A stretch of 64,000 nucleotides of DNA. Origin: a bacterium (lineage in GTDB: Bacteria > Zhuqueibacterota > Zhuqueibacteria > Residuimicrobiales > Krinioviventaceae). The stretch spans positions 5,792,001 to 5,856,000 of the forward strand of contig OY843751.1 of NCBI GenBank assembly GCA_963693055.1, written 5' to 3'. Under the pieces are notes generated by a model that searched no databases, was not told where the DNA came from, and saw only the letters and a list, made by a program, of their open reading frames with translations. A program made the translations under genes and the position numbers. This document shows positions 855 to 50,602 of the stretch, one piece after another (the first letter of the stretch is position 1; each line of letters begins with the position of its first letter).

Positions 855-1405
855 TATTTTCCTGACCATGAACCATCGCTTTTTTGTATCAATGTGCCGT
901 CCGGCGAATTATCTATATTCAATTTTGCAAAAATCTTGTTGCGTTCCTCATCATCTGCAGCAGCCGCAGATGGGTTAATTGCAAGTATACGCTCATATAT
1001 CACCTTACGGTCCTGATTTTCTTCAGTTACAATCTGATCTATTATGCGTTTATACTGAGAATCTGATTCATACTTTTCAGTTGGCAATATTTCCAGATAG
1101 CCCTTGTTGTTTTCACCCAGAACCTGTTCTTTTTTAAACTCGTCAATTTCATCCTTGTTAAACTTGCGGTTTTGAACAGATTCCAATACATTTTGGCGCT
1201 GTGCAGACATGGTTTGTGTCTGACCACCGCCAACCGAACGGGTAGATGCAATAACCCATGTATTGCTTTCAATCTCTGCAAACGCACCTAACACTTGTTC
1301 TTCCAGCATAGTTTTATCACCACTAATGCTGATTTCATCAGTAGTAACACTACAATTTATATATACTAAAGTAGTTAGTATAAGAAAAATAACAATTGTT
1401 CTCAT
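854..1405 (-). CDS. DUF1318/YdbL-family probable lipoprotein
   Basis: Hydrophobic N-terminus followed by Cys (VYINC). Contains GENNKGYL and ENQDRKVIYE motifs and ends IQKSDGSW. Lies downstream of an AsmA-like gene. Confidence 0.8.
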   Translation of the reverse strand: MRTIVIFLILTTLVYINCSVTTDEISISGDKTMLEEQVLGAFAEIESNTWVIASTRSVGGGQTQTMSAQRQNVLESVQNRKFNKDEIDEFKKEQVLGENNKGYLEILPTEKYESDSQYKRIIDQIVTEENQDRKVIYERILAINPSAAAADDEERNKIFAKLNIDNSPDGTLIQKSDGSWSGK

Positions 1406-1422
1406 TTAATTCTCCTACAAAC

Positions 1423-4400
1423 TTAATTTATTGTTGATGCATTCAATATCCGATCAATCACAAATTGAAGAGGAGTTCTTGAAATATTATAACTATTTCC
1501 TTCTAATTTGATTGGAAGATACCAAGGTCTACCTAATTCAATTGAAGTGTACATAAATCCATGTCGTACTTCAAAGGTGAATAGCTTTGGTGTATATCCC
1601 TGGTTAATAAGGAATCTTGTAAATCTTATTCCTGAATCTTCTTCTTCAGGATCCAAGGAAAGCAGTAAATTATCTGCAACACGTGACCCTATCTCGGTAA
1701 TGTAAAAATAACCTCGAATATCCAGTTTCTCATTGGGATCCACTCCAGTTCCTTCAAATTGAGCGTTGCCATTTATAACGCCCAAACTCTCTTTTCGCTT
1801 TAATCCCGCCAGCAACCGGTCCGAGTTGATACCTGAAAAATGGGCAGACAAATTATAGGTCGCTTCTGCCAGGTTGCCGCCTGCAAGGTTAACAGAGATC
1901 CTGCCGCCCAGGTTTCCATCATAAACCGTTGCCATATATGAAGGGATTTCCACCCGGCCGCCTCCCAGCACAGCTTCAAATTCAAAGTTGTCAATTTCAT
2001 AACCCGCGGCTTTTATCTTTTCAATACTCAGGTACGACATGTTTTCAAGCGAATTACGATAGTAATCCCGATAAGCCAGATAATCAATTGAACCATCTGT
2101 GGGAGTCTGTATAGGCGCCTCTTTGTCCGCCAGAAAAATCCCTTTAACCAGATCCATACGTTGATGTACTTTTAAATCCGCATTGATATTGCTGACAGCT
2201 GTTTCAGCCGGCAGCAATATAGTCAAGTCCTTGGTATTGACATTCGCAAAAATGTCCAGTAATGCCGTGTCCATATTGACGGTTGCACTGAGATCGGTTT
2301 TACCGTCCAGTTGAATATCCCGGGTTATCTGCAGTGGCTCTTCAGCATTTTGATGAAAATCCAATGTTGCAGAAATGAGTGGGGCCGTATCTACATTTTC
2401 TATATTGGCATAAAACTCGCCCTTTGCCAGCAATTCAGGCAAAAAGATTAGACCATTTTCAACCCGAAAACTCTTTAAATCATTGCTGTGAACATCCAAT
2501 GATATCACATTATCTAAAAAAGCCGCCCGTCTTACATTATCCGTCAGGGTTGTATCAATTTTTAATGAAACGCTAACATCCGCTTTATTATCTGAATTTA
2601 ATCCTGCATCCACATTCAAACGAATTCCCGCAATTGAAATAAACTGATCAGGATAATGAACCGACGTCTGCTCTGTAAAGACCTTGCTTTCAAGATCGAA
2701 AACCGGCAGTTCACCGGCCAGATTGCCGACAACATTCGCGGTGACATGGGTTGCACCGGTTACCTTTAAACTGGCAAACTGTTCTTTCATACGCCGCGGC
2801 ATCCAGTCCAGAACAGGTGCATGGTACAATGCCAGGTCTTGCAGTTTGACCTTAAAATCGGTTTTACCCACATCAAACGTGCCATTTAAACTGGCTGTTA
2901 AAATCTGGTTCAGTTTGACAGATAAATTATGAATATCCAGATGCTGGAACAAGGTGTCAATACCGCACAGCAGGTTGGTTGTAAAATGAATTGGAGGAAA
3001 ATTTTCGGTTTCATATTGCATGGGTATCATCAAAGAATCTGTGGCAAAATCGAGATGGGTAGAGATAGAATCCAGCGTTTGAATGCCAATATCCAGCTTT
3101 AGGTTTGCGGTTGTTTCAAGCGGCAGGGGTACCAGATTTCTTGTATCGATATCGGAAACCTTGACCACCCCATTACCTGTAATTGATTGTAAGGTCTTTT
3201 CCGCGCCCAGTGTAAAATGAGAATAAAAGGTGGTTCCCAATACATTGGCAACCTCAAAACCCAATTCCACATCTCTGGGCATCATATACTCGTTTATACC
3301 CGCCTCTAGATTTAATCCGCCCTTACCGGTATATATTTCAAGAGTATCGCTCAAGCCATAATACACAGAATCAAAATTTACAGATACTGTTGCGTTTAAA
3401 CTTTGCAATCCCTTAAAATTGAGTCTGCCGTCTGATCTTGCCAGCAAATTCAGGTTCACCAGCTCTGCCTGTCCCTGGTTTAAGGTCAAGCCAAAATCGA
3501 GAAAATCCGCAAAGGCCTGAAATTCCAATCCTTCTGTGGAAGAACTGTCTGGCAGCGTGCCTTCAACACGGGTTCCCGCAAAGGTAATAGCAGCATTGGG
3601 ATTTTTAAAATATATATCCGGGAACATCGAATCGGGCAGTACAGACCTTCCCAGGGACAAAAGCTGCTGCACAGGTATTCTGCTCTTGTCTACGGAAGCA
3701 GAAAGATGCGGGGGCCACTGTTTGTAAAATCCATCAACTTTGATGCTAGAACCCAGCCAGGTTTCATCTCCTACCTTGACGGTCAAACCGGGGACTAGTA
3801 CTTTTTCCTCTTCAACAAGAACATGCACATCACCAGACACGGTTATGGGATAAATCAACGGAATGACAGGAAAATCAGGCACTGCCGAGGAACGAAACTC
3901 GAGGTCACTGACCTGTAAAAACAGAGAGGCATCCAGACTATCCAGTGTGGCAATTCTGACCTTGCTGTTCAAAGCAATCATACCTGTTACAGACATTTCA
4001 TCACCGCCCGCAACATACTGGCTGAATTCAAAAACGGCCTTGTCTACATTCAGTTCCAGTGCGGCTGCCAGGGCACTGTCATTCGCCATTACATCACCCT
4101 GGGGCACATAAATATCATCCAGACCCACATCCAAATCTGCAAGATACAAAACTTGACTGGTTAGACTGTCCTGCATTTCCATGCGGAATTTTGTATCTTG
4201 CAGCCGAAATTGCTTCAAGGCAATACTAACCGGCAATACCGGTGTTTGCAACGAGTCCGCTGGCGGCTCTTTTACCGTTGTTGTATCCTGAGGTGGAGCA
4301 ATCATGTTGATAAAAATATCCGGCGAGTTGAGCTCAATCTCGTCAATGACAACACGCTTGTGAAACAGCTCACGAATATTGTATTTTAAAATAATTTTGT

Positions 4401-4719
4401 GTATAGATGCAGACTGGACCGGAAAATCATCCGGCAAGGCCTGGTCTTGCTCTAGTGGAAAGAGTGCGATATCTGTAAATTCAATGCCTTTCAGCAGATT
4501 GATATCTACACCCTCTATGGTCAGATTTCGGTTAAACTGTTCCCTGACAGTTTTTATCGCCAAACCTTTAAAATACTCGGGTGGAAAAAATAGATAAACG
4601 ATTATAATTAATAAAAGGATGAGCCCAATAAAACCCAAACCCAAAAACAACCAGAATCGGAAAAAACGTCTCCAAAACCCCCTTTTAACTCGTTTTTCTT
4701 TTTTTGTTCCAGTTGCCAT
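1423..4719 (-). CDS. AsmA-like/YdbH-type intermembrane bridge protein
   Basis: 1098 aa. Basic N-terminus, a single TM helix, then long amphipathic beta-strand repeats and an AsmA-like C-terminus (YDGNLGGRISVNL). Confidence 0.75.
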   Translation of the reverse strand: MATGTKKEKRVKRGFWRRFFRFWLFLGLGFIGLILLLIIIVYLFFPPEYFKGLAIKTVREQFNRNLTIEGVDINLLKGIEFTDIALFPLEQDQALPDDFPVQSASIHKIILKYNIRELFHKRVVIDEIELNSPDIFINMIAPPQDTTTVKEPPADSLQTPVLPVSIALKQFRLQDTKFRMEMQDSLTSQVLYLADLDVGLDDIYVPQGDVMANDSALAAALELNVDKAVFEFSQYVAGGDEMSVTGMIALNSKVRIATLDSLDASLFLQVSDLEFRSSAVPDFPVIPLIYPITVSGDVHVLVEEEKVLVPGLTVKVGDETWLGSSIKVDGFYKQWPPHLSASVDKSRIPVQQLLSLGRSVLPDSMFPDIYFKNPNAAITFAGTRVEGTLPDSSSTEGLEFQAFADFLDFGLTLNQGQAELVNLNLLARSDGRLNFKGLQSLNATVSVNFDSVYYGLSDTLEIYTGKGGLNLEAGINEYMMPRDVELGFEVANVLGTTFYSHFTLGAEKTLQSITGNGVVKVSDIDTRNLVPLPLETTANLKLDIGIQTLDSISTHLDFATDSLMIPMQYETENFPPIHFTTNLLCGIDTLFQHLDIHNLSVKLNQILTASLNGTFDVGKTDFKVKLQDLALYHAPVLDWMPRRMKEQFASLKVTGATHVTANVVGNLAGELPVFDLESKVFTEQTSVHYPDQFISIAGIRLNVDAGLNSDNKADVSVSLKIDTTLTDNVRRAAFLDNVISLDVHSNDLKSFRVENGLIFLPELLAKGEFYANIENVDTAPLISATLDFHQNAEEPLQITRDIQLDGKTDLSATVNMDTALLDIFANVNTKDLTILLPAETAVSNINADLKVHQRMDLVKGIFLADKEAPIQTPTDGSIDYLAYRDYYRNSLENMSYLSIEKIKAAGYEIDNFEFEAVLGGGRVEIPSYMATVYDGNLGGRISVNLAGGNLAEATYNLSAHFSGINSDRLLAGLKRKESLGVINGNAQFEGTGVDPNEKLDIRGYFYITEIGSRVADNLLLSLDPEEEDSGIRFTRFLINQGYTPKLFTFEVRHGFMYTSIELGRPWYLPIKLEGNSYNISRTPLQFVIDRILNASTIN

Positions 4720-20408: not shown

Positions 20409-22187
20409 TTATTCAACTATTCTTATGAATATCTCTCCCAACTTTTTTTTATTTGAAGAAACAATTATCGGATAAATCTGTTTATCTCTGTCTATGGCAT
20501 AACTGTCGAGTAAATTCTCATTCAACGCAATATTCAGATTCCTGTCTTCTCCATCTCCATTTCCAACAAAGCCTTTAAAATTTACTTGCAACCCTGTTTT
20601 CTGTGCATCGCTGGTTTCTACATTTACTATACGAATAATCTGATTCTTATGAAATTCTATTGTTTCATTATTTCTAACATTCAAAGTATCTTGTCCGCAT
20701 TCAAGCTTTATACTCATCAAATCCGGCTTTTTTAAAACAATACGAAAGCTGGCAAGTATTTCATTATATTGCTCTAAACGAATACTATATACCCAGCCCT
20801 CTCCATCTTCTGAATATGCTTTTATCAAATCCGTAGATGTGTCAACCCAAACACCCCGGTCCTGAGTTTTTAATGATTTATCCTGTGGAACAAATCCATA
20901 AACATTCACCCTGACCGAAGGATCTTGTTGTGTTGAAGGTACTGTATCTATAATCTTAATTCTGTCACCGGGCACCAGTTTAATGTCTTTATCTCTATCA
21001 AACACTTGTACATCATCGTTCACATTCATTACCAAATAATTGAATGATTCTTTAGGTATCGCTTGACTATCTTTAATATCCAGGTATATCTCACCACAAA
21101 GAAATTTATCTTTTCGAACAATGGCTTTGGTAGAATTGTTTATAACAATCTTTGACCGGTAATCATTCACGGTACCATAATTTAATATGTCAACCGATAG
21201 ACCGCGCTCATAGTTTGATTCTATATGGTTAATTTCGACTTTGTCACCTTTATTAATAGTCAAAGATTTTCCAACAGGCACAATATGTGTTTGCTGTTCA
21301 TTGATGGTAACAATAACAAAATATAATTCAGGATATTCCAGATAGATACGTGGCACTTCGGGTACTATATTAAATATCTTCATAAATTCATTAATTATCC
21401 ATACCTGATGTCGCACCTTTAACTCTATGTCTGATATAGACTTGGAAGACTCGATCCCAAACGCAGGAATACCAAAATTTGATAGCGCGTAATAAGTTGC
21501 CGAAGCACGCTGCTCGGCATGACGGGTATGGTCTGAAAAAGTATTATGGTTATTAAAAGCAAACTGATATTGAGGATTTTCAATTTTTTTGTTAACCTGG
21601 GTAATTACCGTTTTGGCAATCTCTTCTAAATTCAGTGTCTCAGTTGAATCATTGCTTGAAAACACATCCGCGTCTGCAATTATCGATTGACCATAACGTA
21701 ATGGATTTTCAATATCAGAAATCCAAGTATCCCGATAAAACCCTGATCCTTCATGTAAATTCAACAAAACATCTGCTTCTGCTATAAGTGACTTTAAAAT
21801 TTCTACAATTTGCTCTTCATAATTTTCACCATTTTTTTGTTTGGTGAATTTACGGTTCATATCTCCATGATAGCCACGCTGGTCCCGAATTATAGTATTA
21901 AAATTAGCACGGGGTACCATAATAAGACTACCTCGCTCAAGGTTTATATCCACATAATGGTCAGCAGCAAGATAGCCTGTGGGCTCATTTCCTTGGATTC
22001 CACCAATAACAAGCATTGTATTATCGGGTATACGTCCCTTTATCCGATAAACATTCAACTCATAAGGTGTATTCTCAAAATAAGTTTCCTGCACAAAACG
22101 TTTTTCAACATCTTTGGAATAGACGTTGAAAAAACCAAGAAAAATGAATAAAACAAAAATAATATTTTTATTAATTATCATTATCAA
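20409..22187 (-). CDS. M99-family (Csd4/Pgp1-like) D,L-carboxypeptidase
   Basis: GGIQGNEP (Gln in place of His as first Zn ligand, the Csd4 hallmark), DMNRKF, LNLHEGSG and AFGIES motifs. Repeated C-terminal beta domains. Confidence 0.85.
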   Translation of the reverse strand: MIMIINKNIIFVLFIFLGFFNVYSKDVEKRFVQETYFENTPYELNVYRIKGRIPDNTMLVIGGIQGNEPTGYLAADHYVDINLERGSLIMVPRANFNTIIRDQRGYHGDMNRKFTKQKNGENYEEQIVEILKSLIAEADVLLNLHEGSGFYRDTWISDIENPLRYGQSIIADADVFSSNDSTETLNLEEIAKTVITQVNKKIENPQYQFAFNNHNTFSDHTRHAEQRASATYYALSNFGIPAFGIESSKSISDIELKVRHQVWIINEFMKIFNIVPEVPRIYLEYPELYFVIVTINEQQTHIVPVGKSLTINKGDKVEINHIESNYERGLSVDILNYGTVNDYRSKIVINNSTKAIVRKDKFLCGEIYLDIKDSQAIPKESFNYLVMNVNDDVQVFDRDKDIKLVPGDRIKIIDTVPSTQQDPSVRVNVYGFVPQDKSLKTQDRGVWVDTSTDLIKAYSEDGEGWVYSIRLEQYNEILASFRIVLKKPDLMSIKLECGQDTLNVRNNETIEFHKNQIIRIVNVETSDAQKTGLQVNFKGFVGNGDGEDRNLNIALNENLLDSYAIDRDKQIYPIIVSSNKKKLGEIFIRIVE

Positions 22188-22857
22188 TCGATTTGATATT
22201 TTGATAGATGATTTGACCGTCAGTAGAATATACTCTTATAACAGCAAATTTTATGGAAAAATCCGGGGGATCAAGATTAAATTGCACTTTTTTGAAATAC
22301 TTGATCGCAAATGAATCACCCGTCTTGTAATTAATTGCATTAAACTGTTTATCAACTTTGCAACCTTGCGGAAAAGTTGAAACCCTTGCATCAGCATTCA
22401 TACTGTCCATAAACAGCACATGCAGATACCCTTCTGCTTGAGAATTATTTCCGGAATCATTAACAAGATCAAATCCAACTTGTAATTGGGTCTTACTATT
22501 GTTAACGCTAAAATCCCGAACATTAATAATCTTTTGATCAATTTCATCAAATGTGACAACAGGATTCTGTTTAGCTTGTACCTGGGGTGTTGATTTGACG
22601 GGTGGTTTTTGCTTTTTAGGTTCAACATGACCATATAAAAAAGCGTCTTTCTTCTGACTCTTTAGCGACAATACCTGATCTTTTAATTCAGTATTTTGTA
22701 CAGATAATTGCCATGTCAAAAAAACGAGTCCAACAAAGATTAGAAAGAAAAGGATGACACCAAACTTTAACAGTTGATAATACAAAAAAGGCAGATTGAT
22801 CTTTCGTATTTTGTAGGAACTGCGGATAAACAAAATTGTTAACAATTCATGTCGCAT
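22171..22857 (-). CDS. Hypothetical bitopic membrane protein (TM, coiled coil, Pro/Gln linker, beta domain)
   Basis: 228-aa ORF closely spaced between two peptidoglycan enzyme genes (overlapping the M99 gene). One TM around residues 32-50. Confidence 0.7.
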   Translation of the reverse strand: MRHELLTILFIRSSYKIRKINLPFLYYQLLKFGVILFFLIFVGLVFLTWQLSVQNTELKDQVLSLKSQKKDAFLYGHVEPKKQKPPVKSTPQVQAKQNPVVTFDEIDQKIINVRDFSVNNSKTQLQVGFDLVNDSGNNSQAEGYLHVLFMDSMNADARVSTFPQGCKVDKQFNAINYKTGDSFAIKYFKKVQFNLDPPDFSIKFAVIRVYSTDGQIIYQNIKSIDNDN

Positions 22858-22862
22858 AAACT

Positions 22863-23825
22863 TTATTCACTGGTTGCTTTGTTCTCATTCCAAACTTCTC
22901 GAACTATTTTAAAAGAATCATTTTCTTTAATGATATACAGTTGCTTAATTCCTGAATCTTTGTAATTCTCTGTTGAATAATCTTGGTAAAAATTGGCTAC
23001 ATAGTTTACATCATCCTTGAAAATTTGAATGTTGTACAAATCAACAGCGATATCTTTATATTGCTTAAACAATCTGTTTTTATATGCTTTATAAGCATAA
23101 TAATTCATACCATCAAAGTGAAACTGCTTAGAATAGCAATCAATAAAGGTGCCAATGTTTTGATTTTCCCAGCTTTTCTTCCATTTTTGTAAAAAATTTA
23201 CTATCTCCAGCTTGTCAGCCTCAACAAAATTTTGATTTCTAAAATAAATTTCGTCTACTATGACAACCGGTGTCTGATCAATAGTAACATACTGAGAGAC
23301 ATCATTAAAATCGGTATTTTCAAGAACAACACAGCCTTTGGTGTCATTTGAATTCTGAATTCGCTCTGGCTCATCCGTTCCATGTATCCAAATACCATAA
23401 CCATTCTTTTTTTTCATTTTGTCAAAACCATTAGGATAATCGAGAACAAATGCACCAGCACCATAAATAGGAGCAAGATACTGCTTGTCTTTTTCATCCC
23501 GAATGAAATATATGCCTTCCGGTGTTTTCAAATCACCTACTACATTTTTATCACCACGGACTTTGCCGGTAGAACAGACATATTGTTTTTCAACAAACAA
23601 TGTTGAATCAACTGCTTTTAAAACCAAAAAAGATTGACTTCGTTTTTCTACAAGAAATAGATACTCACTGCTTTTATTACAATCCAAATGAAGAAATGGA
23701 AGCGGCGCATACAACTCGTTTTTATTAAAACGGGTACCATATTCAAAAGTTGCAGAATGTGCAGAAACAATTGATAATAAAACCAGTACTAAAACAAATA
23801 GATTCCTGTTACTCATTTTTCCCAA
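22863..23825 (-). CDS. YkuD L,D-transpeptidase-family protein, Csd6/Pgp2-like L,D-carboxypeptidase
   Basis: GDLKTPEGIY, LDYPN and GIWIHG...TKGCVV motifs. C-terminal NTF2-like domain (WKKSWE...FYQDY...GIKQLY...IVRE). Confidence 0.85.
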   Translation of the reverse strand: MGKMSNRNLFVLVLVLLSIVSAHSATFEYGTRFNKNELYAPLPFLHLDCNKSSEYLFLVEKRSQSFLVLKAVDSTLFVEKQYVCSTGKVRGDKNVVGDLKTPEGIYFIRDEKDKQYLAPIYGAGAFVLDYPNGFDKMKKKNGYGIWIHGTDEPERIQNSNDTKGCVVLENTDFNDVSQYVTIDQTPVVIVDEIYFRNQNFVEADKLEIVNFLQKWKKSWENQNIGTFIDCYSKQFHFDGMNYYAYKAYKNRLFKQYKDIAVDLYNIQIFKDDVNYVANFYQDYSTENYKDSGIKQLYIIKENDSFKIVREVWNENKATSE

Positions 23826-26226: not shown

Positions 26227-26258
26227 AAAAAAAACCGTCAGACGATTGTCTGACGGTT
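26227..26258 (-). terminator. Rho-independent terminator closing the three-gene unit
   Basis: Perfect 11-bp stem AACCGTCAGAC/GTCTGACGGTT with a 4-nt loop, then a T run on the minus strand. Confidence 0.8.
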
Positions 26259-26313: not shown

Positions 26314-28563
26314 TTAGTTTTTAAAATAAAATACCGGACCACCCATTAATACACGTTTATATTTAAAAGAGTTGGTCTGGTAAACCGCATACTTGGCTTC
26401 GAACCAAATGGTTCCGCTCCACAGATGCTGTTTTACAGTAACCATGCTTGACCATTTATCACCAAATCCAAATCTCCAGTCAAACAAAAAGTTTTTAAAA
26501 CCACTATCGGTAGTATAGCTCAAGCCCATTGAAAGGTAGTGTTGAGAATATTTGAATTCTTGTCCTCGTGGAGTAATAATTCTTCCATCTTCAATGGTGT
26601 TGCCTCGTTTTTCCCAAACTTTATAAAGTGAATAAGAGACTTCGTCCAGCTTTAATCTAAATCTGTTAATGGGAGCATCATCCTTTAATCCAAAACGGAG
26701 GCCGGCACCATTATATCTGTTAAAATAGCTGTACTTGAGGCCTTCTGTATCCATATCAAAATGATATATCTCTTTACCTAATCCGCTAATATCTCTGGGG
26801 AATGTCATTGGCAATTGAAAAGAAATGTTATAACCAATACTTTTCAGGTAACTGCTGTTTGGCATCCAGCCAAAAACTTCATTTATTGCATTATAGTCCC
26901 AACTTTTATTTAAAATAAATTGAATATTGTTGATTGCAAGTCTGGCATCGCCTTCATTCTTTTCAAAAAAGCGGTTGTCTAATTTATAGTCAACAAAGTT
27001 GATCAATGTTCTATTTGCGTAATTATACGGTCTGTAACTGACTCGAATGTCATCAACCAACCAGGTGATGGGCGGAACTTCATTAAAATTCCATTCAAAA
27101 TAATACGCCATGCTACCTGACCATACAAACGGATAATTAAATTCATCCTGGCCAAATTCAGTACCCAGTTTGAACCGCTGGTTCAATAAAGAAAATTGAA
27201 AATTCAACTCATCTACGCTCAATGTTACGGGATATGCATTTTCTGCTTTTGGAAAAGCATAAGATTCCATTGCCTCAACAACACCAATCTGACCTCCATC
27301 AACCTGTGCGGGCTCGATATGTTTTTGTCCGGGTCTAACAGTATTAGACAAAGGTACCAGACCAAACAGGGATGCAACATAATAGTTACCCAAATCATTA
27401 TGATTTTCATGTGATGACAATACCTGGAAATTGCTTGACTGTATGGAATACTCTATTCTGTCCAATTTATTGGTTTCGAGTTCCATATCATAATTCATGT
27501 ACAAGCGAGCGGAAACAAAACTGGCTTGTTCTTTATCTACTGCCGCTGAAACAGCAATATCAATAATCTTGTTGGCTATATCTGTAAAGTTGAGCTTTGT
27601 TTTACGTTCTAAACGCTGCATACGCAATTCGTCGTTTTGCAATACTGCCTGAGAACCATTGCGATAAACAGTAATCTCTTTGGAGTATTTTCCGGATGGG
27701 GTCTTTTTCAAGTTTACACCAAAACTCCATTTATCCGGCAAATTGTTTGGCATCTCTCCTTCTTCATCCCAGAAATATTGTTGAAAAATATATTTGGGCA
27801 ATGAAGGTTCTTTATTTGAAGAAATATCAATCTTGCTCAAATCATTAATAAATTGTTCTGCCGGCAATGTGTGAATTTTTACAAATTGATCACGTTCAAT
27901 GTAACCCACCTGAATGGCTTTAACCGCGGGTGAATTATCACGTCCGGTATTTGTATAAAGAATTTTGATAGCGTCAATAGAGTCAACCTTTGCTTCTACA
28001 TCAGCACTGATCTGCACAAGTACATCGAGAAGGGTATTAAACTCTTCAGCATTTTTACGCTTTGACCAGAGCCCCGCGTAATCGGAAGAGGTAATATCTT
28101 CTTCCAACTGGGTAATAGGTATTGAAATTGAAGAAGCTCTTCTGAATACCAAACCCGATGCTTGAATATAAGAATCGATAGCGCCCATATAGTTATCACT
28201 GGGAGCATTGATTGAATTCAAAAATCTTGAAATATCGATCTCGATGTTTGTTGGGGTATTATCATCTATATAGATCGATTCAATCTTTAAACGATTTTCC
28301 GTAGAGTTGTAATTAACCAAAATACCAACATTATCAATCAAGGTCATGGGACTTTCCCATGTGGCTCTCGACGCATCGTTGGGATCGTTAATCACCTCTC
28401 TTAATGTATTGATAAAGTCTTGAAACACCTGAGGATTCGCTTCATAATCCCTTGGAGTGGTTATGTAAGTTCGGATGTTATCAGCTACTTCATTGGCCTG
28501 TGAAAAAACGACAGAAACGAACACCAATAAAACCAAAATCAAACACGTTAATTTACCTTTCAT
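26314..28563 (-). CDS. Secreted hypothetical protein with N-terminal alpha/beta repeats and a probable C-terminal outer-membrane beta-barrel
   Basis: Signal peptide ending VFS|Q. The last ~300 aa are aromatic-rich with alternating strands and end GPVFYFKN. The ORF is secure; the barrel is inferred. Confidence 0.65.
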   Translation of the reverse strand: MKGKLTCLILVLLVFVSVVFSQANEVADNIRTYITTPRDYEANPQVFQDFINTLREVINDPNDASRATWESPMTLIDNVGILVNYNSTENRLKIESIYIDDNTPTNIEIDISRFLNSINAPSDNYMGAIDSYIQASGLVFRRASSISIPITQLEEDITSSDYAGLWSKRKNAEEFNTLLDVLVQISADVEAKVDSIDAIKILYTNTGRDNSPAVKAIQVGYIERDQFVKIHTLPAEQFINDLSKIDISSNKEPSLPKYIFQQYFWDEEGEMPNNLPDKWSFGVNLKKTPSGKYSKEITVYRNGSQAVLQNDELRMQRLERKTKLNFTDIANKIIDIAVSAAVDKEQASFVSARLYMNYDMELETNKLDRIEYSIQSSNFQVLSSHENHNDLGNYYVASLFGLVPLSNTVRPGQKHIEPAQVDGGQIGVVEAMESYAFPKAENAYPVTLSVDELNFQFSLLNQRFKLGTEFGQDEFNYPFVWSGSMAYYFEWNFNEVPPITWLVDDIRVSYRPYNYANRTLINFVDYKLDNRFFEKNEGDARLAINNIQFILNKSWDYNAINEVFGWMPNSSYLKSIGYNISFQLPMTFPRDISGLGKEIYHFDMDTEGLKYSYFNRYNGAGLRFGLKDDAPINRFRLKLDEVSYSLYKVWEKRGNTIEDGRIITPRGQEFKYSQHYLSMGLSYTTDSGFKNFLFDWRFGFGDKWSSMVTVKQHLWSGTIWFEAKYAVYQTNSFKYKRVLMGGPVFYFKN

Positions 28564-28600
28564 GACATCTCCGAATTATTTCTATTCTTTATTCTATTTC

Positions 28601-30475
28601 TCAATCTACACCTAATTGACGAATGATTAATTGTCTATTCTGACTGTTTAAAGAGATAGGTTGTTTTGAATATGGTACATTTACTCTTAAACCATCTATA
28701 TTCACAATAGAACCTGGTGAAAACTTTGTATTGAAAACAAACTGTGTTTCTGAAGTTGCCGGATTAGCATATGATGCCTTAAATGGCCGCACATTAAATT
28801 CCAATATAGACTTTATGGGGTCACCAAAAAAGTCATGCAAATAAAAAGTGACAAATGTTGTAGAAGCTACATAGTCATTGTCTTTTATATTGATGCGATA
28901 ATCATCTGGAACTTGAGCGACATAAAACTGAATTTGCTTATAATGGTTCGTATTTGTATTAACACGCAAATTCAGGTTACGAACATCTGCATCTATAGAA
29001 TATTTCACATTACCCAATTGATTTCTGGGTGATTGATTTCCATTAACAACACAATTCCTGATATGATTTGCATTTACATTCTGCAAGGAATAGAAAAAGT
29101 TCACAGGTCTGGATTCATAAACAATTGGATATTTTGCCTGATTTGCCGGAGAATCTTTGAGATAACTCTCCTCATCCGGATACTTTTTAATAAACCTTTC
29201 AAACAATTCTTTTTCATCGGTAAACTGGTTACCCGGATCATCCAACTCACTTTGAAACATGGGACGAATTGGCGGCCAAACCTGGAACCGGAAGGGTATA
29301 ACTTCAATCAACCAGTTACGTTCATCAACAGACATACCTGACCTTGCAACCAAACGTATGGGTACCTGCAGACTCGAAAATCCATTCAAATTTCGGTTTG
29401 TAGTAATGGGAAATTCAAGATCAAAAACCTGATAATTGTTTGTTGGTGTTACAAAGATATTGCTCTTAAGTGCTTCTCTATTTCCCAGCTGTATATTGGT
29501 TATAGACTCATTATTTAACACTTCCTTGTTGTCAATATACAAGGTTATGTATTCAACCGGAAAGTTTGCCGAAATTACCTGCTTAAACGGCATACCTACA
29601 GGGGTATTTAATTTCTCAACATAATTTTCCGGGGGATGTAATATTTTAAACTTGTTAACAATCTCTTCGGAAACTGTAAATACATTGGGTTCCTGACCCG
29701 GATTGTTCAGATTTAATCTTTTACGTTTCTTTTCGGTTATAACATCAAGATAATTTCCACGGGCTCCATGTAAAGAATCCGGAATTAAATATTTTACTGC
29801 AAATGTAAATTTATCAATACCAAATGTGCTTGCCAGATTGCCTGCATCAAAATCTTTCCAAGTTGAATCTGAGAGATTAATCTCTACACTTTTGATCATA
29901 GATGAATCAGGCAACACATCGTTACCTCTTCGCAGGTATTTGTAATTTATTGTCAAGCCGCTGCCATCTTTATTTAATGGTATTTCACTAAAGATCAACA
30001 ACTTTATACCCTGATCTAATAGATAACCAAAATTTCTATCCTGCTTTTTAACTAATCGTTTTGAGAATCCATCTTTTTCAATAATATGTACAAAGTAATA
30101 ATTCCCTGAATCAAATTGAATATAGACATTACTATCCTGAGAGGGTCCCATATATTGAATATCAAAATTATTTGATGTTTTAGAATAATTTATCTGGTAT
30201 CTACCGGCACCCTGCTCAAAATTAGCAGAAGTAAAACTCAGAGTGTCGCCAATTTGACGGGCAAGTCTATATTCAAATTCGGCATCTGTTTGCTCAGTCG
30301 TCCAGGAATATTGCAAAAAATCATTGGCCATACCGCCAATATCCATTACATTATTTTCTCTGAACAATTCCTGAGCATTGTGCGGATCAAGTCTATTCGG
30401 GTCAACAAATTTAAGGTAGACAGACATTAAAAATGTCAACACATACAAGAGTAATACTATTCGATTCCTATCCAT
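28601..30475 (-). CDS. Bitopic membrane protein, GldM/PorM-like
   Basis: N-terminal MDRNRIVLLLYVLTFLM has Arg and Tyr 8 residues apart, as in the GldM TM (RQKMINLMY, recalled). Large beta-rich periplasmic region. Confidence 0.55.
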   Translation of the reverse strand: MDRNRIVLLLYVLTFLMSVYLKFVDPNRLDPHNAQELFRENNVMDIGGMANDFLQYSWTTEQTDAEFEYRLARQIGDTLSFTSANFEQGAGRYQINYSKTSNNFDIQYMGPSQDSNVYIQFDSGNYYFVHIIEKDGFSKRLVKKQDRNFGYLLDQGIKLLIFSEIPLNKDGSGLTINYKYLRRGNDVLPDSSMIKSVEINLSDSTWKDFDAGNLASTFGIDKFTFAVKYLIPDSLHGARGNYLDVITEKKRKRLNLNNPGQEPNVFTVSEEIVNKFKILHPPENYVEKLNTPVGMPFKQVISANFPVEYITLYIDNKEVLNNESITNIQLGNREALKSNIFVTPTNNYQVFDLEFPITTNRNLNGFSSLQVPIRLVARSGMSVDERNWLIEVIPFRFQVWPPIRPMFQSELDDPGNQFTDEKELFERFIKKYPDEESYLKDSPANQAKYPIVYESRPVNFFYSLQNVNANHIRNCVVNGNQSPRNQLGNVKYSIDADVRNLNLRVNTNTNHYKQIQFYVAQVPDDYRINIKDNDYVASTTFVTFYLHDFFGDPIKSILEFNVRPFKASYANPATSETQFVFNTKFSPGSIVNIDGLRVNVPYSKQPISLNSQNRQLIIRQLGVD

Positions 30476-30494
30476 AATCTATATTACCACTTTT

Positions 30495-31580
30495 TTACTT
30501 TTCAACAATTAAATTAACTTTTTTCAAGGCATCAAGAACACCCTGTGCGATCATTTCTGCATCAACCTTTTCCGCTACAACTTCTTTATCTTTTAAAGCC
30601 TGAGCCAGCTTTTCAGCAAACGCTTCATCAATTTTCAATTCTTTTTCTTCTTCATGGGTTTTAAATTTATCCGGAAACTTGTATCCCAAATAAAAAGCGG
30701 CAGCTTCGGTAAAACCACCGGCAACAACCAAAAAGGTCAACATGTTAAAACCCCACTTTGAAAAATTCTGAAATTGATCGGGATTAAAGGCGTGAAAGAT
30801 ATCATATAACTGCCAGTGAAAGTAAACACTCATATCAAGCAATTGGTTTTTTTCAAAATAGATAATACCTACAATTGCAAAAATCATGGTAATAATACCC
30901 AAATTCATAATCTGGGTAGGAGCTGAATATAAAAAGTTTTCTCTAAATTGCTTGTCTTTTTCCATTAAATTATTATTTCTAAATTGTACCAGCTTTCGAA
31001 TAGGAATCACAAAGATACCCCAAAAGAATGCCGCAATTGCCACAACTTGAAACGTTATTCCAATTACTGTTTGAAAGAGATACACTTCGGCAGTTGGGTT
31101 CATAACCTCTGTTAATATGCGAATTCTTTCACCAAAACCGGAAACAAGTATCACCAGCATGAGGAAAAGAACCAGCAAGATCACTTTAACAACAGCGGTA
31201 ACATCTACAATCTTGCCCATTTCACCAAGATTATACTCACTTGTTAAACCATCGATGATATTTTTCATATCCAGCTTGACCTGATCGCTGCCATGAGCTT
31301 CAAGCAATTTTCGAATTTGAACTTCATTTAACAGGTCAGCTTTTTCCGGGGATTTTAAAAAAGGCACCAAATATTTAACAAGAAACCAAAAACCGGTAAA
31401 AAAGCCTCTTTTTTGATGATCTTCTCGTTGTTTTTGATAAATATTTTCTTCAAATATAGCAACAACCTCTTTTGCAATAGCTGGATTATGAAAATATGCC
31501 TTTTTCCTGGTTAATTTCAATAAATTGTCTTTAGAAAGATCATACTTTATCAAACCAAACATCGAGTTTAATTTACCCAT
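30495..31580 (-). CDS. Polytopic membrane protein with a GldL/PorL-like TM hairpin
   Basis: ENFLY-x9-G and AGGFTEAAAFYL match the GldL TM1 (MNFAY-x9-G) and TM2 (IGLLTEALIFAL) patterns (recalled). Intramembrane Glu292. Confidence 0.6.
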   Translation of the reverse strand: MGKLNSMFGLIKYDLSKDNLLKLTRKKAYFHNPAIAKEVVAIFEENIYQKQREDHQKRGFFTGFWFLVKYLVPFLKSPEKADLLNEVQIRKLLEAHGSDQVKLDMKNIIDGLTSEYNLGEMGKIVDVTAVVKVILLVLFLMLVILVSGFGERIRILTEVMNPTAEVYLFQTVIGITFQVVAIAAFFWGIFVIPIRKLVQFRNNNLMEKDKQFRENFLYSAPTQIMNLGIITMIFAIVGIIYFEKNQLLDMSVYFHWQLYDIFHAFNPDQFQNFSKWGFNMLTFLVVAGGFTEAAAFYLGYKFPDKFKTHEEEKELKIDEAFAEKLAQALKDKEVVAEKVDAEMIAQGVLDALKKVNLIVEK

Positions 31581-31717: not shown

Positions 31718-31757
31718 AAAAAAAATTAAGCGGCACCAAATAAATTCAATGCCGCTT
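31718..31757 (-). terminator. Terminator of the atp operon
   Basis: AAGCGGCA/TGCCGCTT stem downstream of atpC, followed by a T run on the minus strand. Confidence 0.65.
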
Positions 31758-46157: not shown

Positions 46158-46943
46158 TTACTTCATTAAGGTTAAAGATTTTGTATCTTTAAAATCTCCA
46201 GCGTGAATGCTGTAAAAATATACCCCGGAAGGCACCTGAAATCCTTTATCATTCATACCATTCCACATTACACTAAACTTTCCGGCTTGCATGGGCTGGT
46301 CTACCAGAGAGCGAACTTTTTGCCCCAATGCATTAAAAATCTCCAATTTTACATGTTCAGCAGCAGCAATACTGTACTGAATACGCGTATTGGGATTAAA
46401 GGGATTGGGATAGTTTTGTGCCAGTTCAAATTGTGTAATCGTTTTAGAACCATCATTAATACCCGTATCAATGGTTTTAATTAAAAAACTACTGTTAGAC
46501 AGGGTATAAGGAAGTTTCTCATTATCCACATCAGAAACAGTAACCTCTTCAAAGGTTAATTCATATTCCTGACCGGCTGGTGCATCTTCAGACACACTAT
46601 AGGCGATGTAAAGTATATTAGCCGTCTGTGGTTCAATGGTTCTGGTTTTACTTTGCAGTAAAAGAATTTCAGAAGTATTGAGCTCAGGATAATAGTTATA
46701 AGAAAACAGTTGTGATCTCTGAATGTTTTCAGTCCAAATAGAATCAACTGTCAGATAATCACTATTATCTATCAAACGAAATTGTATACCTCGTATTGTA
46801 TCTTCATTTGCAAGGTTCAGATACACCAAATTACCAACACTTCCGGGTGTTCCGCTTCCATTGCTTAAACTTAACGAGTTGACCCCTGCAAAAGCACTGC
46901 CTGCAGCAATCATTAATAAAATCAGTATCTTGTAAACTTTCAT
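46158..46943 (-). CDS. Secreted cohesin-like domain protein with T9SS type-A/FlgD-Ig sorting domain
   Basis: Signal peptide. Cohesin-like LNLANEDTIRGIQFRL. Sorting domain FELAQNYPNPFNPNT...WNG...SGVYFY...K. Confidence 0.8.
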   Translation of the reverse strand: MKVYKILILLMIAAGSAFAGVNSLSLSNGSGTPGSVGNLVYLNLANEDTIRGIQFRLIDNSDYLTVDSIWTENIQRSQLFSYNYYPELNTSEILLLQSKTRTIEPQTANILYIAYSVSEDAPAGQEYELTFEEVTVSDVDNEKLPYTLSNSSFLIKTIDTGINDGSKTITQFELAQNYPNPFNPNTRIQYSIAAAEHVKLEIFNALGQKVRSLVDQPMQAGKFSVMWNGMNDKGFQVPSGVYFYSIHAGDFKDTKSLTLMK

Positions 46944-46986
46944 CTCTCACCCCAAAACAATTTAAAATTGATTGGTTAATATATAT

Positions 46987-47012
46987 GGGAGCAGTAAAAA
47001 ATTACTGCTCCC
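46987..47012. other. Perfect intergenic stem-loop without a U tract
   Basis: GGGAGCAGTAA-aaaa-TTACTGCTCCC, an 11-bp stem. Confidence 0.75.
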
Positions 47013-47036
47013 TAAATTCATCTATTCATTAATCTA

Positions 47037-48821
47037 TTATGGATTAGCCAAATCTACTACTGCAAGCGCATCGTAAACATCAATGTCACCATCCTGGTCA
47101 ATATCGCCCGCTAAACGCTCAATATCAGTTGCTGGATCACCGGTGCCCAAAATGATTTCTGCCATACGATCGATATCATCGTTATCAACAGTACCGGTTG
47201 GTACAATATCGCCGGTAAGTACATAATGGAACAAACCGGAAACCAGTGAAGGAACAACTGCCTGGTTGTTGTCATCAGATAATGCTACATTTGAAAAAGT
47301 CAAAGATGACGTTGTACCATAAGTAACTGCAGGATCAATATGGAAATTAATTTGAGCAATAGCGCCTGAACCTGCCGGAATAGAAGTAAAAGAGGTTGTA
47401 TTGGCTATAAGTACCTGAACATAAGTTCCAGATTCATCAAAAGTTACATCAAAAGTAGATGCACGTCCAACACCAAGCACATCTGTTGCAGTCAATTCGT
47501 TAGGAGTATCTGTCAAACGGAACAATACACCACGAATAGGTACCTGGTTTTCAAGCAAAACATTGATTGTTACATCTTCATCCTGTTCACCACTGCCGCT
47601 CTGCACAGACAATACAACTTGAGAAGATGAAATGTTAAATACGGCATCACTCTGGTCTGTTGGGCTTGCATCGGTATCTTGAACCCTTACCAAAGCTGTA
47701 GAAGTGGTAACTGTTGGAACGGTCCAGGAATAGCTGCCATCATTAGGTGTACTGGCAACAATAGAGGTCCAGGTGGTTCCACTGTCAGTTGAATAAGAGA
47801 TTGAAACGTTTGCAATAGTACCTTCAGATGTCCAAGTAATATCGTGAGCAGAGCTTGATGCCCAGGTTTCGCCACCGTTAGGACTGGTAACTGTAACCGT
47901 TTGAACTTCGGCAGTAATTTCAAATGTAGCAGTACTAATACCCCATGGAACACCATCAGCAGCATCAGAAACTCTTACAAGACAGTTCTCGGATGGAGCA
48001 TTAGGAATCGTCCATGCATAGGTACCGGTATTGGTTGTAGAAGAAACAATATCGGTCCAGGTAGCGCCGCTATCTGTAGAATATTCAATCTGAACATCAT
48101 CAGAAAATTCAGAAATATCCCAGGCAATTGTTTCAGCAGAGCCAACCAACCAAACTTCTCCACCTGAAGGTGAAGTAACATCAATTGTTTCTGCTCGGAG
48201 TGTAAAATCGTCAACATTATTGCTTGAATTACCAAAAAGAGCAACACCGGAATAATAGAAATAGCTATTTCCGTACAATTTGCCGGCATCCGTAACACGA
48301 CCATCTAAATTACCATTGATATAAAAATCAAAATGGTAACCACTGGCGTCAGAAGATGCAGCAACCGTAATTTTGTCGCCAGCTGTAGGCGCACCAAGTG
48401 TAGCTGTAACTTTGGCAATTTCAGTCTCACGTATTACATTACCATTTACAACAGGAAGCAGGTACAGGTATTCATTACGACGCATTACCATGTAACCTTC
48501 AGCGTTTGATACATTCGAAGAAGACAAGAACATACAAAGACCAGATGCGTTAGCACCTGCTGTTGTAGCGGTTGATGCAAATGTCATAGATACTTCTGAA
48601 GGACTTGCCTGGGCAGTATATACTGCAACATAATCCCAGGAGCCAACTGTTGAAGTGTTTGACAATGTATTAGTTACAATTGCGTATTCGGGATCAGCGG
48701 ACCAGTTTGATCCTAATGATGCCCGGTTAAAATCATCCACTATGGTGACAGCACCCAAAGGCAATATAGATGCGCCAAGCAGGATGACGAGCATGATCGA
48801 GAAAATGGATTTAATTCTCAT
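47037..48821 (-). CDS. Secreted modular protein: beta-sandwich/lectin-like domain, two SPNGGE (Ser/Thr-rich, Asp-box) Ig-like repeats, cohesin-like domain, C-terminal dockerin
   Basis: Signal peptide. Repeats at about aa 212-302 and 308-397. Cohesin-like LENQVPIRGVLFRL. Dockerin duplicate GDIVPTGTVDNDD / GDIDQDGDIDVYD. Confidence 0.8.
   Translation of the reverse strand: MRIKSIFSIMLVILLGASILPLGAVTIVDDFNRASLGSNWSADPEYAIVTNTLSNTSTVGSWDYVAVYTAQASPSEVSMTFASTATTAGANASGLCMFLSSSNVSNAEGYMVMRRNEYLYLLPVVNGNVIRETEIAKVTATLGAPTAGDKITVAASSDASGYHFDFYINGNLDGRVTDAGKLYGNSYFYYSGVALFGNSSNNVDDFTLRAETIDVTSPSGGEVWLVGSAETIAWDISEFSDDVQIEYSTDSGATWTDIVSSTTNTGTYAWTIPNAPSENCLVRVSDAADGVPWGISTATFEITAEVQTVTVTSPNGGETWASSSAHDITWTSEGTIANVSISYSTDSGTTWTSIVASTPNDGSYSWTVPTVTTSTALVRVQDTDASPTDQSDAVFNISSSQVVLSVQSGSGEQDEDVTINVLLENQVPIRGVLFRLTDTPNELTATDVLGVGRASTFDVTFDESGTYVQVLIANTTSFTSIPAGSGAIAQINFHIDPAVTYGTTSSLTFSNVALSDDNNQAVVPSLVSGLFHYVLTGDIVPTGTVDNDDIDRMAEIILGTGDPATDIERLAGDIDQDGDIDVYDALAVVDLANP
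47631..48188 (-). repeat. Two tandem ~90-aa intragenic repeats
   Basis: VTSPSGGEVW...IEYSTDSGATW...GTYAWTIP...LVRVSD versus VTSPNGGETW...ISYSTDSGTTW...GSYSWTVP...LVRVQD. Confidence 0.85.
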
Positions 48822-48872
48822 TGTTAACCTCTATCTCTTTATTAATTTTTACCAATTCGTTATACCTGCTAA

Positions 48873-50312
48873 TTATTTCATGATAGCCAGTTTTTTGGTC
48901 AAAACCACGTCTCTGGCTGAAAATCTGTAAAAATAAACACCTGATGAAACTTCTCTACCATAATCGTCAGAACCATTCCAGTGAACAGTATAGCGACCAG
49001 CTGATTTGCTGTGATCTACCAGTGTTTTTACCAATTGACCACGGGTGTTAAAGATTTCCATTTTAACGGGTACTGAGCCATTTTCAATGCTTGGCACATC
49101 AAAAGTAATTGTTGTGTTCATGTTGAACGGATTTGGGCTGTTCTGATGCAAAGCAAATGTTTGAGGAACAATAGTAACATCTGAACTTTGACCGGTCATG
49201 GTCTGCAAAGCAGATCCGTTTTCAGAACCAGCAATTGCGTGGTTGATAGAAATTGCTGATGTTTCATTCAAAGCCTTGCGGATGGTTACAGGAATTGTCA
49301 TAACAGTTGATTCACCCATAGACAATGACTGTCCTTCAAGACCGCACATGATAACATTTAATTTTTTTCCGGCTTTTCTGCTAACAATACTCATACCAGA
49401 AGAAGCACTGGTGGTGCTGGGAGAACCAACAACATAATTATCAGATTCCATCTCGAGCTCAAACTGTAAACCATGCAATGCTGCCGAACTATTTACAGTA
49501 ACAGGTACATCAATTTTCCCTACAAAGTTTGCAGGTAAAGCAGGTAAAGAAATTTTTACGCTACCGGAAGTTTTGCTCAATGGAGTAACTCTGGCAGAAG
49601 AAGGTGCAACTGCCTGGTCCATTGCTTCACCTATATCAACAACAGTAATCAAACCGTCATCATCCCAATCGGCTGCCCAAAGTTCGTAAGAAGTGGGTGG
49701 GTCACCTCGATCAAGAGCAATATCAACAATACGCAAAACGTCAAACAAATCTACAACACCATTATAGATAACATCCAGTTTTTTACCAAACCAGAAACGT
49801 CCATTATCACGAATATTTGTAACCGGCGCATTTGTTGTTCCGGCAAGTTTAACATTGTTTAATGTCATGTCAGCAGTTGTTCCACCAGAGGCGCCATCCG
49901 CAACATCGACGGTTACAAAAAGAATTGTATCGCCGGTTGCATTTGTCTTTGCTTCCAGCAATGTTCCATCAGGGTCAATAGGAAGCATCAATACTTTTAA
50001 CGTACCCTCAACCTGTGTTGTATCAACTCTGAAATTTGCAGACTTTGTTGGTGTAGTAACACAGTTCAAGGCCGTTGTTGTAGAAATGCCTGTTACAAAT
50101 AAAGAATCCGGAAAATCAGACAAGGTAAAATACAATCCCTTAATTTCCGTTGTGTTTGAAAGTACGACAGCAAAAGTACCTGCCTGACCCGGTAACCCGT
50201 AACTGTCTGTAACTCTCAGTGTATCGGTTGTTGCCGAAAAACCCGGAACCAGCATCGTTCCGATCAGAATCAGGGTTATAATCAGGACTGGTATGGTTGA
50301 TGAGTGTTTCAT
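48873..50312 (-). CDS. Secreted cohesin-dockerin-cohesin protein with T9SS type-A/FlgD-Ig sorting domain
   Basis: Signal peptide (start placed at 50312 behind GGAGG). Cohesin-like LSNTTEIKGLYFTL and VNSSAALHGLQFEL. Dockerin DVIYNGVVDLFD / ADWDDDGLITVVD. Sorting domain FALHQNSPNPFN...SSGVYFY...K. Confidence 0.8.
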   Translation of the reverse strand: MKHSSTIPVLIITLILIGTMLVPGFSATTDTLRVTDSYGLPGQAGTFAVVLSNTTEIKGLYFTLSDFPDSLFVTGISTTTALNCVTTPTKSANFRVDTTQVEGTLKVLMLPIDPDGTLLEAKTNATGDTILFVTVDVADGASGGTTADMTLNNVKLAGTTNAPVTNIRDNGRFWFGKKLDVIYNGVVDLFDVLRIVDIALDRGDPPTSYELWAADWDDDGLITVVDIGEAMDQAVAPSSARVTPLSKTSGSVKISLPALPANFVGKIDVPVTVNSSAALHGLQFELEMESDNYVVGSPSTTSASSGMSIVSRKAGKKLNVIMCGLEGQSLSMGESTVMTIPVTIRKALNETSAISINHAIAGSENGSALQTMTGQSSDVTIVPQTFALHQNSPNPFNMNTTITFDVPSIENGSVPVKMEIFNTRGQLVKTLVDHSKSAGRYTVHWNGSDDYGREVSSGVYFYRFSARDVVLTKKLAIMK

Positions 50313-50602
50313 CATACCCTCCATTTATAATTTTGTTAAAAAGTAACTGCGATTTAATGGTACAAGCGGTTTTGTTAAAAAAGTGTTTCTTGTTGAAACG
50401 GTAACTCTAAAGTGATACAATCACAAATTAGTAATTGAACTCTTGTTCCCCACCTCCTTCCATTCGATATTTATCTTTATTTTTTTCATATCTATAATTG
50501 TCTGTTTTTTATTAAGTTACGACACTGTCAATCTTGGCTTTTTTTCAATCTGTTCGGAACAAGCGCTTACTTTGTATTGTGTCTCATTCTATACCCTATT
50601 AA

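Follow-up and report, generated by a model that had tools for sequence, protein, structure and literature searches.

A conserved operon beside the ATP synthase genes in two KSB1 genera encodes a candidate GldLM-type motor and a predicted outer-membrane barrel

The 64,000-nucleotide stretch of DNA analysed here (hereafter the window; positions 5,792,001 to 5,856,000 of contig OY843751.1, assembly GCA_963693055.1) contains three adjacent genes, A, B and C, located between atpC of the ATP synthase operon and aspS. We favor, with some reserve, the interpretation that this trio is a conserved operon for a very diverged GldLM-type ion-driven motor, composed of A and B, which is coupled to a barrel protein of its own, C, and that it forms an accessory machine of two genera of uncultured bacteria in the phylum KSB1. 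That the trio encodes a motor of any kind is, in our judgment, quite probable. The gene order is the same in all carriers, Glu292 of A and Arg3 and Tyr11 of B are invariant among the homologues, and the membrane helix of B is free of acidic residues.

Gene organization and distribution of the trio

The original prediction described three co-oriented, unannotated genes following the atp operon, and open reading frames (ORFs) were found at exactly these positions. The features of the locus, in coordinates of the window and with numbered transmembrane helices abbreviated TM, are as follows.

30495-31580, minus strand: gene A, 361 aa, with a soluble N-terminus and four membrane helices, of which TM3-TM4 resemble the GldL hairpin; predicted wheel subunit
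30852-30914, minus strand: TM3 of A (residues 223-243), a conserved block of the 14-sequence alignment with invariant M225, G228, I233, I236 and I239
30705-30707, minus strand: codon of Glu292 in TM4 of A; this residue is the same in 14 of 14 sequences, stands in register with the GldL glutamate in profile alignments and is predicted to correspond to Glu49 of GldL
28601-30475, minus strand: gene B, 624 aa, with a single membrane helix at its N-terminus, then a periplasmic part rich in beta structure; predicted to serve as axle and stalk
30404-30469, minus strand: membrane helix of B (residues 3-24), which contains Arg3 and Tyr11 and is free of acidic residues
29288-29659, minus strand: best-predicted immunoglobulin (Ig)-like domain of B (residues 273-396), which VIA superposes on generic Ig domains (Z 8.4, root-mean-square deviation (rmsd) 3.0, 102 aligned)
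26314-28563, minus strand: gene C, 749 aa, with a signal-peptide-like start, an N-terminal region of about 420 residues without a confident fold and a predicted C-terminal barrel
26317-27246, minus strand: C-terminal part of C (residues 440-749), predicted by a low-confidence model and VIA to form an outer-membrane beta-barrel of about 13-14 strands
31728-31757, minus strand: terminator-like hairpin 3' of atpC, between the atp operon and the trio (13-pair stem and T run)
26233-26258, minus strand: terminator-like hairpin at the operon end, before aspS (11-pair stem and T run)

The intergenic gaps are 219 nt between atpC and A, 19 nt between A and B, 37 nt between B and C, and 119 nt between C and aspS. 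Both of the flanking terminators that had been proposed are represented by terminator-like hairpins, while the promoter-like sites proposed with them occur at chance level (28 compared with 23.8 ± 4.5 in shuffles). When we compared the genes with those of a genome of the same genus, the ratios of nonsynonymous to synonymous substitution rates were 0.049, 0.015 and 0.019 for A, B and C, respectively, and those of the reference genes atpD and aspS were 0.039 and 0.018. A, B and C are real genes under purifying selection, and none of them came near a cut-off in Pfam or NCBIfam.

A, B and C were each present in the same five of 101 genomes, which belong to two KSB1 genera of one family, and a phylum-wide profile search found carriers of the trio in five of 167 KSB1 genomes. 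The order atpC-A-B-C-aspS was kept in the window and in the corresponding regions of the four relatives (5/5), in agreement with the proposed three-gene synteny. Three metagenome loci are known, and in both of the two that were read atpC-A-B is followed by the contig end. In eight other regions of the same family, the slot after atpC contains different genes in seven, and one region ends too soon. In three of these genomes (L034, L035 and L036, from G002, G012 and G004), the slot is occupied by an operon of large TPR-like proteins, which in G002 and G004 continues with an ExbB-like, two ExbD-like and a TonB-like gene and resembles Agl/Glt operons; these labels were given by inspection. An orthologue of this operon lies at 895819-903743 in the studied genome.

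A HMMER profile search with A against 1.84 billion representatives gave 11 hits and reached relatives at 19-25% identity. Five of the hits (P0012-P0014, P0016 and P0017; E 3e-8 to 6e-4) are short-loop relatives of 230-248 aa with four helices and a periplasmic loop of 11-12 residues. We looked for the short-loop relatives (P0012-P0017), labeled just "hypothetical protein", in KSB1 genomes and viral contigs and found none. Profiles detected no further convincing copy of A among the 167 genomes of the phylum; weak matches in KSB1 genomes, four with profile A1 and three with profile A5 (E 0.002-0.015), lie in non-core regions or contain stops. The best ESM Atlas scores, 0.77 and 0.76, were both to unnamed clusters and serve as leads only. 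Such a distribution is more easily reconciled with an accessory cassette than with a central component of a secretion system, though extreme divergence could hide orthologues.

Conserved residues of the predicted wheel and axle

In Flavobacterium johnsoniae, Glu49 of GldL and Tyr17 of GldM are invariant, Tyr13 of GldL and Arg9 of GldM are highly conserved, and Arg9 pairs with Glu49, according to 10.1101/2020.05.11.089193. The study 10.1101/2022.01.28.478170 places five GldL around two GldM and reports Ile in place of Tyr13 in the GldL of one species.

Protein A has four hydrophobic segments (residues ~127-145, 172-190, 224-242 and 278-299), which are preceded by a soluble N-terminus of 118 residues and followed by a tail of about 60 residues, and its periplasmic loop has 34 residues. 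By a hydropathy rule, 12 of the 14 sequences in the alignment of the A family (identity to A 19-55%) contain four helices and two contain three. P0015, which is a 73-aa fragment, a 97% identical copy from the same genus and L009, which is nearly the same as P0009, were left out of this alignment. The two helices of A in the original prediction are present, but they are only the last two of the four. The residues it had named, N215, Y218, G228 and E292 of A and R3 and Y11 of B, are all at the positions given. Invariant in the 14 sequences are the start, P221, M225, G228, I233, I236, I239, G288, E292, A295, F296, G299 and P303, which include the proposed motor glutamate. The equation of ENFLY with the TM1 motif of GldL fails, because N215 is kept in 5/14 sequences and Y218 in 1/14. 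The loop between TM2 and TM3 contains five to ten Lys or Arg residues in 14/14 sequences, which fits a cytoplasmic loop, and TM3-TM4 would then form an in-out-in hairpin as in GldL, with E292 near the cytoplasmic end. Because the long forms lack a basic segment ahead of TM1, we infer this topology rather than regard it as demonstrated.

In B, both Arg3 and Tyr11 were found to be invariant, as had been suggested, in the seven sequences of the conservation set (two of which are partial), and residues 3-24 contain no Asp or Glu in 7/7. The two residues are spaced by 8 residues, which equals the spacing of Arg9 and Tyr17 in GldM, and equal spacing was seen in both annotated GldM sequences. The charge layout is therefore GldLM-like, with the acid on the polytopic protein A, and an Arg without an acid on the single helix of B. 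In a model of B built from seven sequences (mean predicted local distance difference test (pLDDT) 54.6), helix 3-24 is followed by a beta-rich part starting at residue 43. The fold matches of B were generic Ig-like sandwiches, the best one over residues 273-396, and we predict an Ig-like stalk for its periplasmic part. The motif FSPGSIVNIDGLRVNVP, once thought to end the protein, sits at residues 585-601, is not terminal and is poorly conserved.

The predicted barrel of protein C

The model of C, built from four sequences (mean pLDDT 40.3), shows about 13-14 strands in residues 446-747. When residues 440-749 were compared with known barrels using VIA, the Z-scores were 13.9 for CymA (rmsd 3.9, 224 aligned) and 13.5 for OmpG, and the barrel gave 10.9 with chain F of the type 9 translocon entry 6h3i. 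CymA, OmpG and PorV are 14-stranded outer-membrane barrels. C differs from these three in having about 420 extra N-terminal residues and is 6-10% identical to them, and the matches are of a general kind that points to no particular family. Foldseek returned nothing for C at E 0.001, just weak porin rows, and the PorV_fam, PorP_SprF and GldN families were undetected in C, with an E value of 0.27 for the profile against PorP. The fold matches listed for C include no GldN or PorP chain, which does not exclude either of them. The C-terminal residue is aromatic in three relatives of C, and the studied protein ends two residues further on. The suggestion of a probable beta-barrel protein in the gldN slot agrees with the C-terminal barrel of this model, and C is predicted to carry a C-terminal outer-membrane barrel unlike GldN.

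Relationship of A and B to GldL and GldM

Reference GldL and GldM sequences, two of each, were taken from Cardinium and Parabacteroides records, and the GldL controls scored 84 and 91 bits on PF22827. Motif rules that accept 2/2 GldL and 2/2 GldM picked 2 and 4, respectively, of 5,436 crudely called ORFs of the genome, and A and B formed the sole adjacent pair, with about 0.0015 expected. When the A5 profile, which consists of the five short-loop relatives and P0011, was aligned with a four-row GldL profile, the hairpin was aligned with the Glu in register (pairwise P 0.0013). The A5 profile trimmed to the hairpin scored 24.1 against three Glu-bearing GldL rows, compared with at most 15.7 when the columns were shuffled 150 times, and the trimmed full A alignment scored 16.2 against GldL, compared with a maximum of 14.9. 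TM4 of the short-loop relatives is nearer to GldL than TM4 of A itself, and four of them have scores against TM2 of GldL that would rank 1-4 among 4,650 proteins. In addition, the M helix in a gldK-L-M locus of a genome of the same family (G009) starts in a way that resembles B.

Several results weigh against our interpretation. First, no library search establishes A and B as homologues of GldL and GldM, as the original prediction had regarded them. A, B and their profiles gave no GldL or GldM match in Pfam, NCBIfam or PDB sequences, searches of A, its fragments and its relatives in the same three collections returned nothing relevant, and A, its fragments and six relatives did not match the GldL families PF22827 and TIGR03513. 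Second, the profile signals are low. The hhalign probabilities were 18% untrimmed, 48% trimmed and 3% for the full A alignment, and the two real GldL ranked 26th and 38th among 5,444 proteins with the short-loop profile and 159th and 162nd with the full A profile. With the B-helix profile, one real GldM ranked 1,750th of the 5,444 and the other was unreported, 14/150 shuffles scored as high as the B helix against the GldM helix, and the B profile had an E value of 0.69 against GldM. With plain substitution scoring, the pair of A and B ranked 116th (TM2 and M) or 5th (TM1, TM2 and M) of 2,783 pairs. Third, the motif rules were fixed after the candidate had been seen, and they accept just 6/14 rows of A together with 7/7 rows of B. 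Fourth, neither TM3 nor the loop of A contains an invariant Tyr, Lys or His (n = 14) that could correspond to the Tyr of GldL TM1 or to the Lys and His of its loop, and no conserved aromatic residue of A corresponds to GldL Tyr13. Finally, all B and C sequences are close kin, the models of B and C are weak, and the fold matches listed for B include no GldM chain, an absence that does not exclude GldM. The periplasmic arm of GldM consists of four domains, a helical one followed by beta domains, and the model of B has no such helical domain.

GldL, as in the proton-driven GldL5-GldM2 and PorL-PorM motors that serve type IX secretion and gliding in Bacteroidota, has two helices and a long cytoplasmic domain, whereas A has four helices, an N-terminal domain and a tail. 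The gldKLMN operon has gldK on its 5' side and gldN on its 3' side, whereas the trio has atpC and gene C, respectively, at these places in 5/5 genomes. Since the family scores, the helix count and the gldK/gldN context all differ, A and B lie outside the GldL and GldM families as defined, though they appear GldLM-like in working. The GldL profile similarity of A is weak and confined to the Glu helix; the likeness is concentrated in functional residues and gene order. Common descent of A and B with GldL and GldM is likely.

The same results bear on an alternative in which there is no motor at all and the trio encodes an unrelated envelope-spanning complex, such as a scaffold, sensor or transporter, with a buried Glu and an Arg/Tyr helix whose likeness to GldLM arose by convergence or chance. 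It would account for the lack of a significant library or fold match to GldL or GldM, the weak profile ranks, the two extra helices of A and the difference between TM3 of A and TM1 of GldL, and signaling topology is all that an N-terminal Arg may do, as noted for GldM Arg9 in 10.1101/2020.05.11.089193. However, both motifs occur in adjacent genes in the L-then-M order, a combination unique in the genome, the Glu helix beats 150/150 shuffles, and the short-loop relatives are closer to TM2 of GldL than A is. We therefore consider this alternative unlikely.

Proposed mechanism

If A and B work as GldLM does, five A subunits would ring two B helices, with TM3-TM4 on the inside and TM1-TM2 on the outside. 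Ion flow would make and break the pair of Glu292 and Arg3, with Tyr11 one level above, and B would turn against the A ring while its stalk crosses the periplasm. The stalk may then act on the N-terminal region of C, by which the barrel would be opened, loaded or released. The stoichiometry, the rotation, the coupling ion and the contact between B and C are what we infer by analogy with known motors, and the most likely output is an energized export or uptake step at C.

A bolder form of this proposal is that the trio represents a separate family of motors with GldLM chemistry, in which the wheel has four helices arranged as in MotA, which would unite the two known classes of 5:2 motor in architecture, and the axle drives an outer-membrane barrel directly, without a GldK/GldN ring. 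In the strongest form of the idea, this motor would power SprA/PorV secretion in this organism, within a phylum that has SprA throughout and in which canonical GldKLMN was found in 1/167 genomes. We put this forward tentatively and regard it as doubtful.

Type IX secretion in the genome and the phylum

The complete genome contains SprA, 22 PorV-family matches over cut-off, two PorU over cut-off and no fewer than 150 type A sorting domains, and the search for sprA, porV and porU that had been recommended thus recovered all three. The two PorU genes are in tandem at 6252356-6259881 of the genome, and there are further PorU-like genes, one of them with a PorV-like neighbor near sprA. No GldL, GldM, GldN or PorP was found over cut-off in the genome, though the GldN search rang in no control genome either, and no GldK was found at E 1e-35; 13 FGE-family ORFs were checked, and none of them lies beside the trio. 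These results agree with the stated absence of gldK upstream and gldN downstream of the motor genes. The search for type B sorting domains gave no match anywhere, controls included. Across the phylum, SprA was matched in 167/167 KSB1 genomes, in 163 of them over cut-off; no genome had a GldK over cut-off (0/167), and one had a match to a GldL profile (1/167). According to PMC10994853, the motor is needed for substrate release from SprA in the Bacteroidota (F. johnsoniae), so a missing motor is a real gap. Our literature search, which left most subscription papers outside, found no paper on KSB1 with type IX secretion or on Zhuqueibacter with secretion systems.

It could be considered that the motor encoded by the trio is the type IX energizer of this genome, with the barrel C replacing the GldK/GldN hub and with versions in other KSB1 genomes that are too diverged to be detected. 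The presence of SprA, PorV, PorU and sorting domains next to the missing Gld components and the requirement for a motor in F. johnsoniae favor this idea. In addition, A is merely 28-44% identical between genera of one family, so that remote orthologues could be missed, and the modeled barrel of C falls in the size class of PorV. On the other hand, SprA is present in 167/167 genomes but the trio in five, the profile search was sensitive enough to reach relatives at 19-25% identity and still yielded no further convincing KSB1 copy, and other genes follow atpC in most of the same-family regions. Moreover, the trio lies about 145 kb from sprA, no type IX gene adjoins it, and C shows no convincing similarity to PorP. 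Sorting-type tails are indeed present at 46158-46943 and 48873-50324, about 15 kb from the trio as previously described, but this nearness means little, given that sorting domains number at least 150 across the genome. Based on these observations, we suggest that the trio is probably not the type IX energizer of the phylum, so that the earlier suggestion of a possible energizing module for a type IX-like machine is not supported as a lineage-wide role, and we think it unlikely that it has this role in the studied genome.

A near-canonical locus was found in the same-family genome G009 (L032:1-2323, contig C585), where a GldK-like lipoprotein (TIGR03525 231 bits, below cut-off) is followed by a short GldL of 128 aa, which scores over the cut-off of PF22827, and by the beginning of a GldM-like gene. 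This gldK-L-M locus may be contamination, since the contig is 2-3 kb long and the genome is 73% complete, and a search with its GldL matched only itself. Two contigs of a viral collection (L063:2315-2575 and L078) carry an 87-aa GldL_N-only protein (24.2 bits) without the catalytic glutamate.

Comparison with other 5:2 motors

MotA5B2, ExbB5D2, TolQR and AglRQS, the 5:2 motors covered by a 2022 review (PMC9389320), resemble the trio in having a polytopic wheel and a single-helix axle in one operon. The Ton system drives an outer-membrane protein directly, and the same would apply to the trio. These motors carry the acid on the axle, whereas the trio carries it on the wheel and has no separate TonB-like gene in its operon. 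MotB, ExbD and TolR have a conserved Asp on the axle helix, and MotA has four helices with both ends inside. It is very improbable that the trio is a stator pair of the MotA, ExbB or TolQ type or an accessory of the neighboring ATP synthase: its four helices with both ends inside would match the layout of MotA, FliG is present in the genome and a TPR/ExbBD-type operon occupies the post-atpC slot in three same-family genomes, but the B helix has no Asp or Glu, an ExbB query found four ExbB-like genes in the genome without A among them, a terminator-like hairpin separates atpC from A, and the GC content of the trio is 5-7 points below that of the atp genes in 4/4 genomes.

Other genes in the window

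Three further groups of genes were observed in the window. At 20409-23825, a Peptidase M99 protein (Csd4-like) and an L,D-transpeptidase with a Cds6_C domain (Csd6-like) flank an uncharacterized 228-aa protein; these genes stay downstream of aspS in the regions of all four relatives and form a possible cell-shape module. At 46158-50324, there are three secreted proteins, two of which carry cohesin-like domains and two of which have sorting-type tails; the one of 594 aa ends in a dockerin-like repeat by inspection. An AsmA-family protein followed by a DUF1318 protein is found at 854-4719.

Implications

The 2022 review (PMC9389320) describes GldLM as a motor that only Bacteroidetes possess and that has no clear homology to the other 5:2 motors. 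A four-helix wheel with GldL chemistry, if true, would connect this motor type with MotA-type wheels in architecture. The pair of A and B is small enough for expression in E. coli and cryo-EM, as done with other GldLM cores. The wider question is the power source of type IX secretion in KSB1, where SprA is near-universal and detectable GldLM is almost absent. If our interpretation of the trio as an accessory machine is true, a GldLM-type motor is able to drive something other than the GldK/GldN ring, a use for which such motors have not been described.

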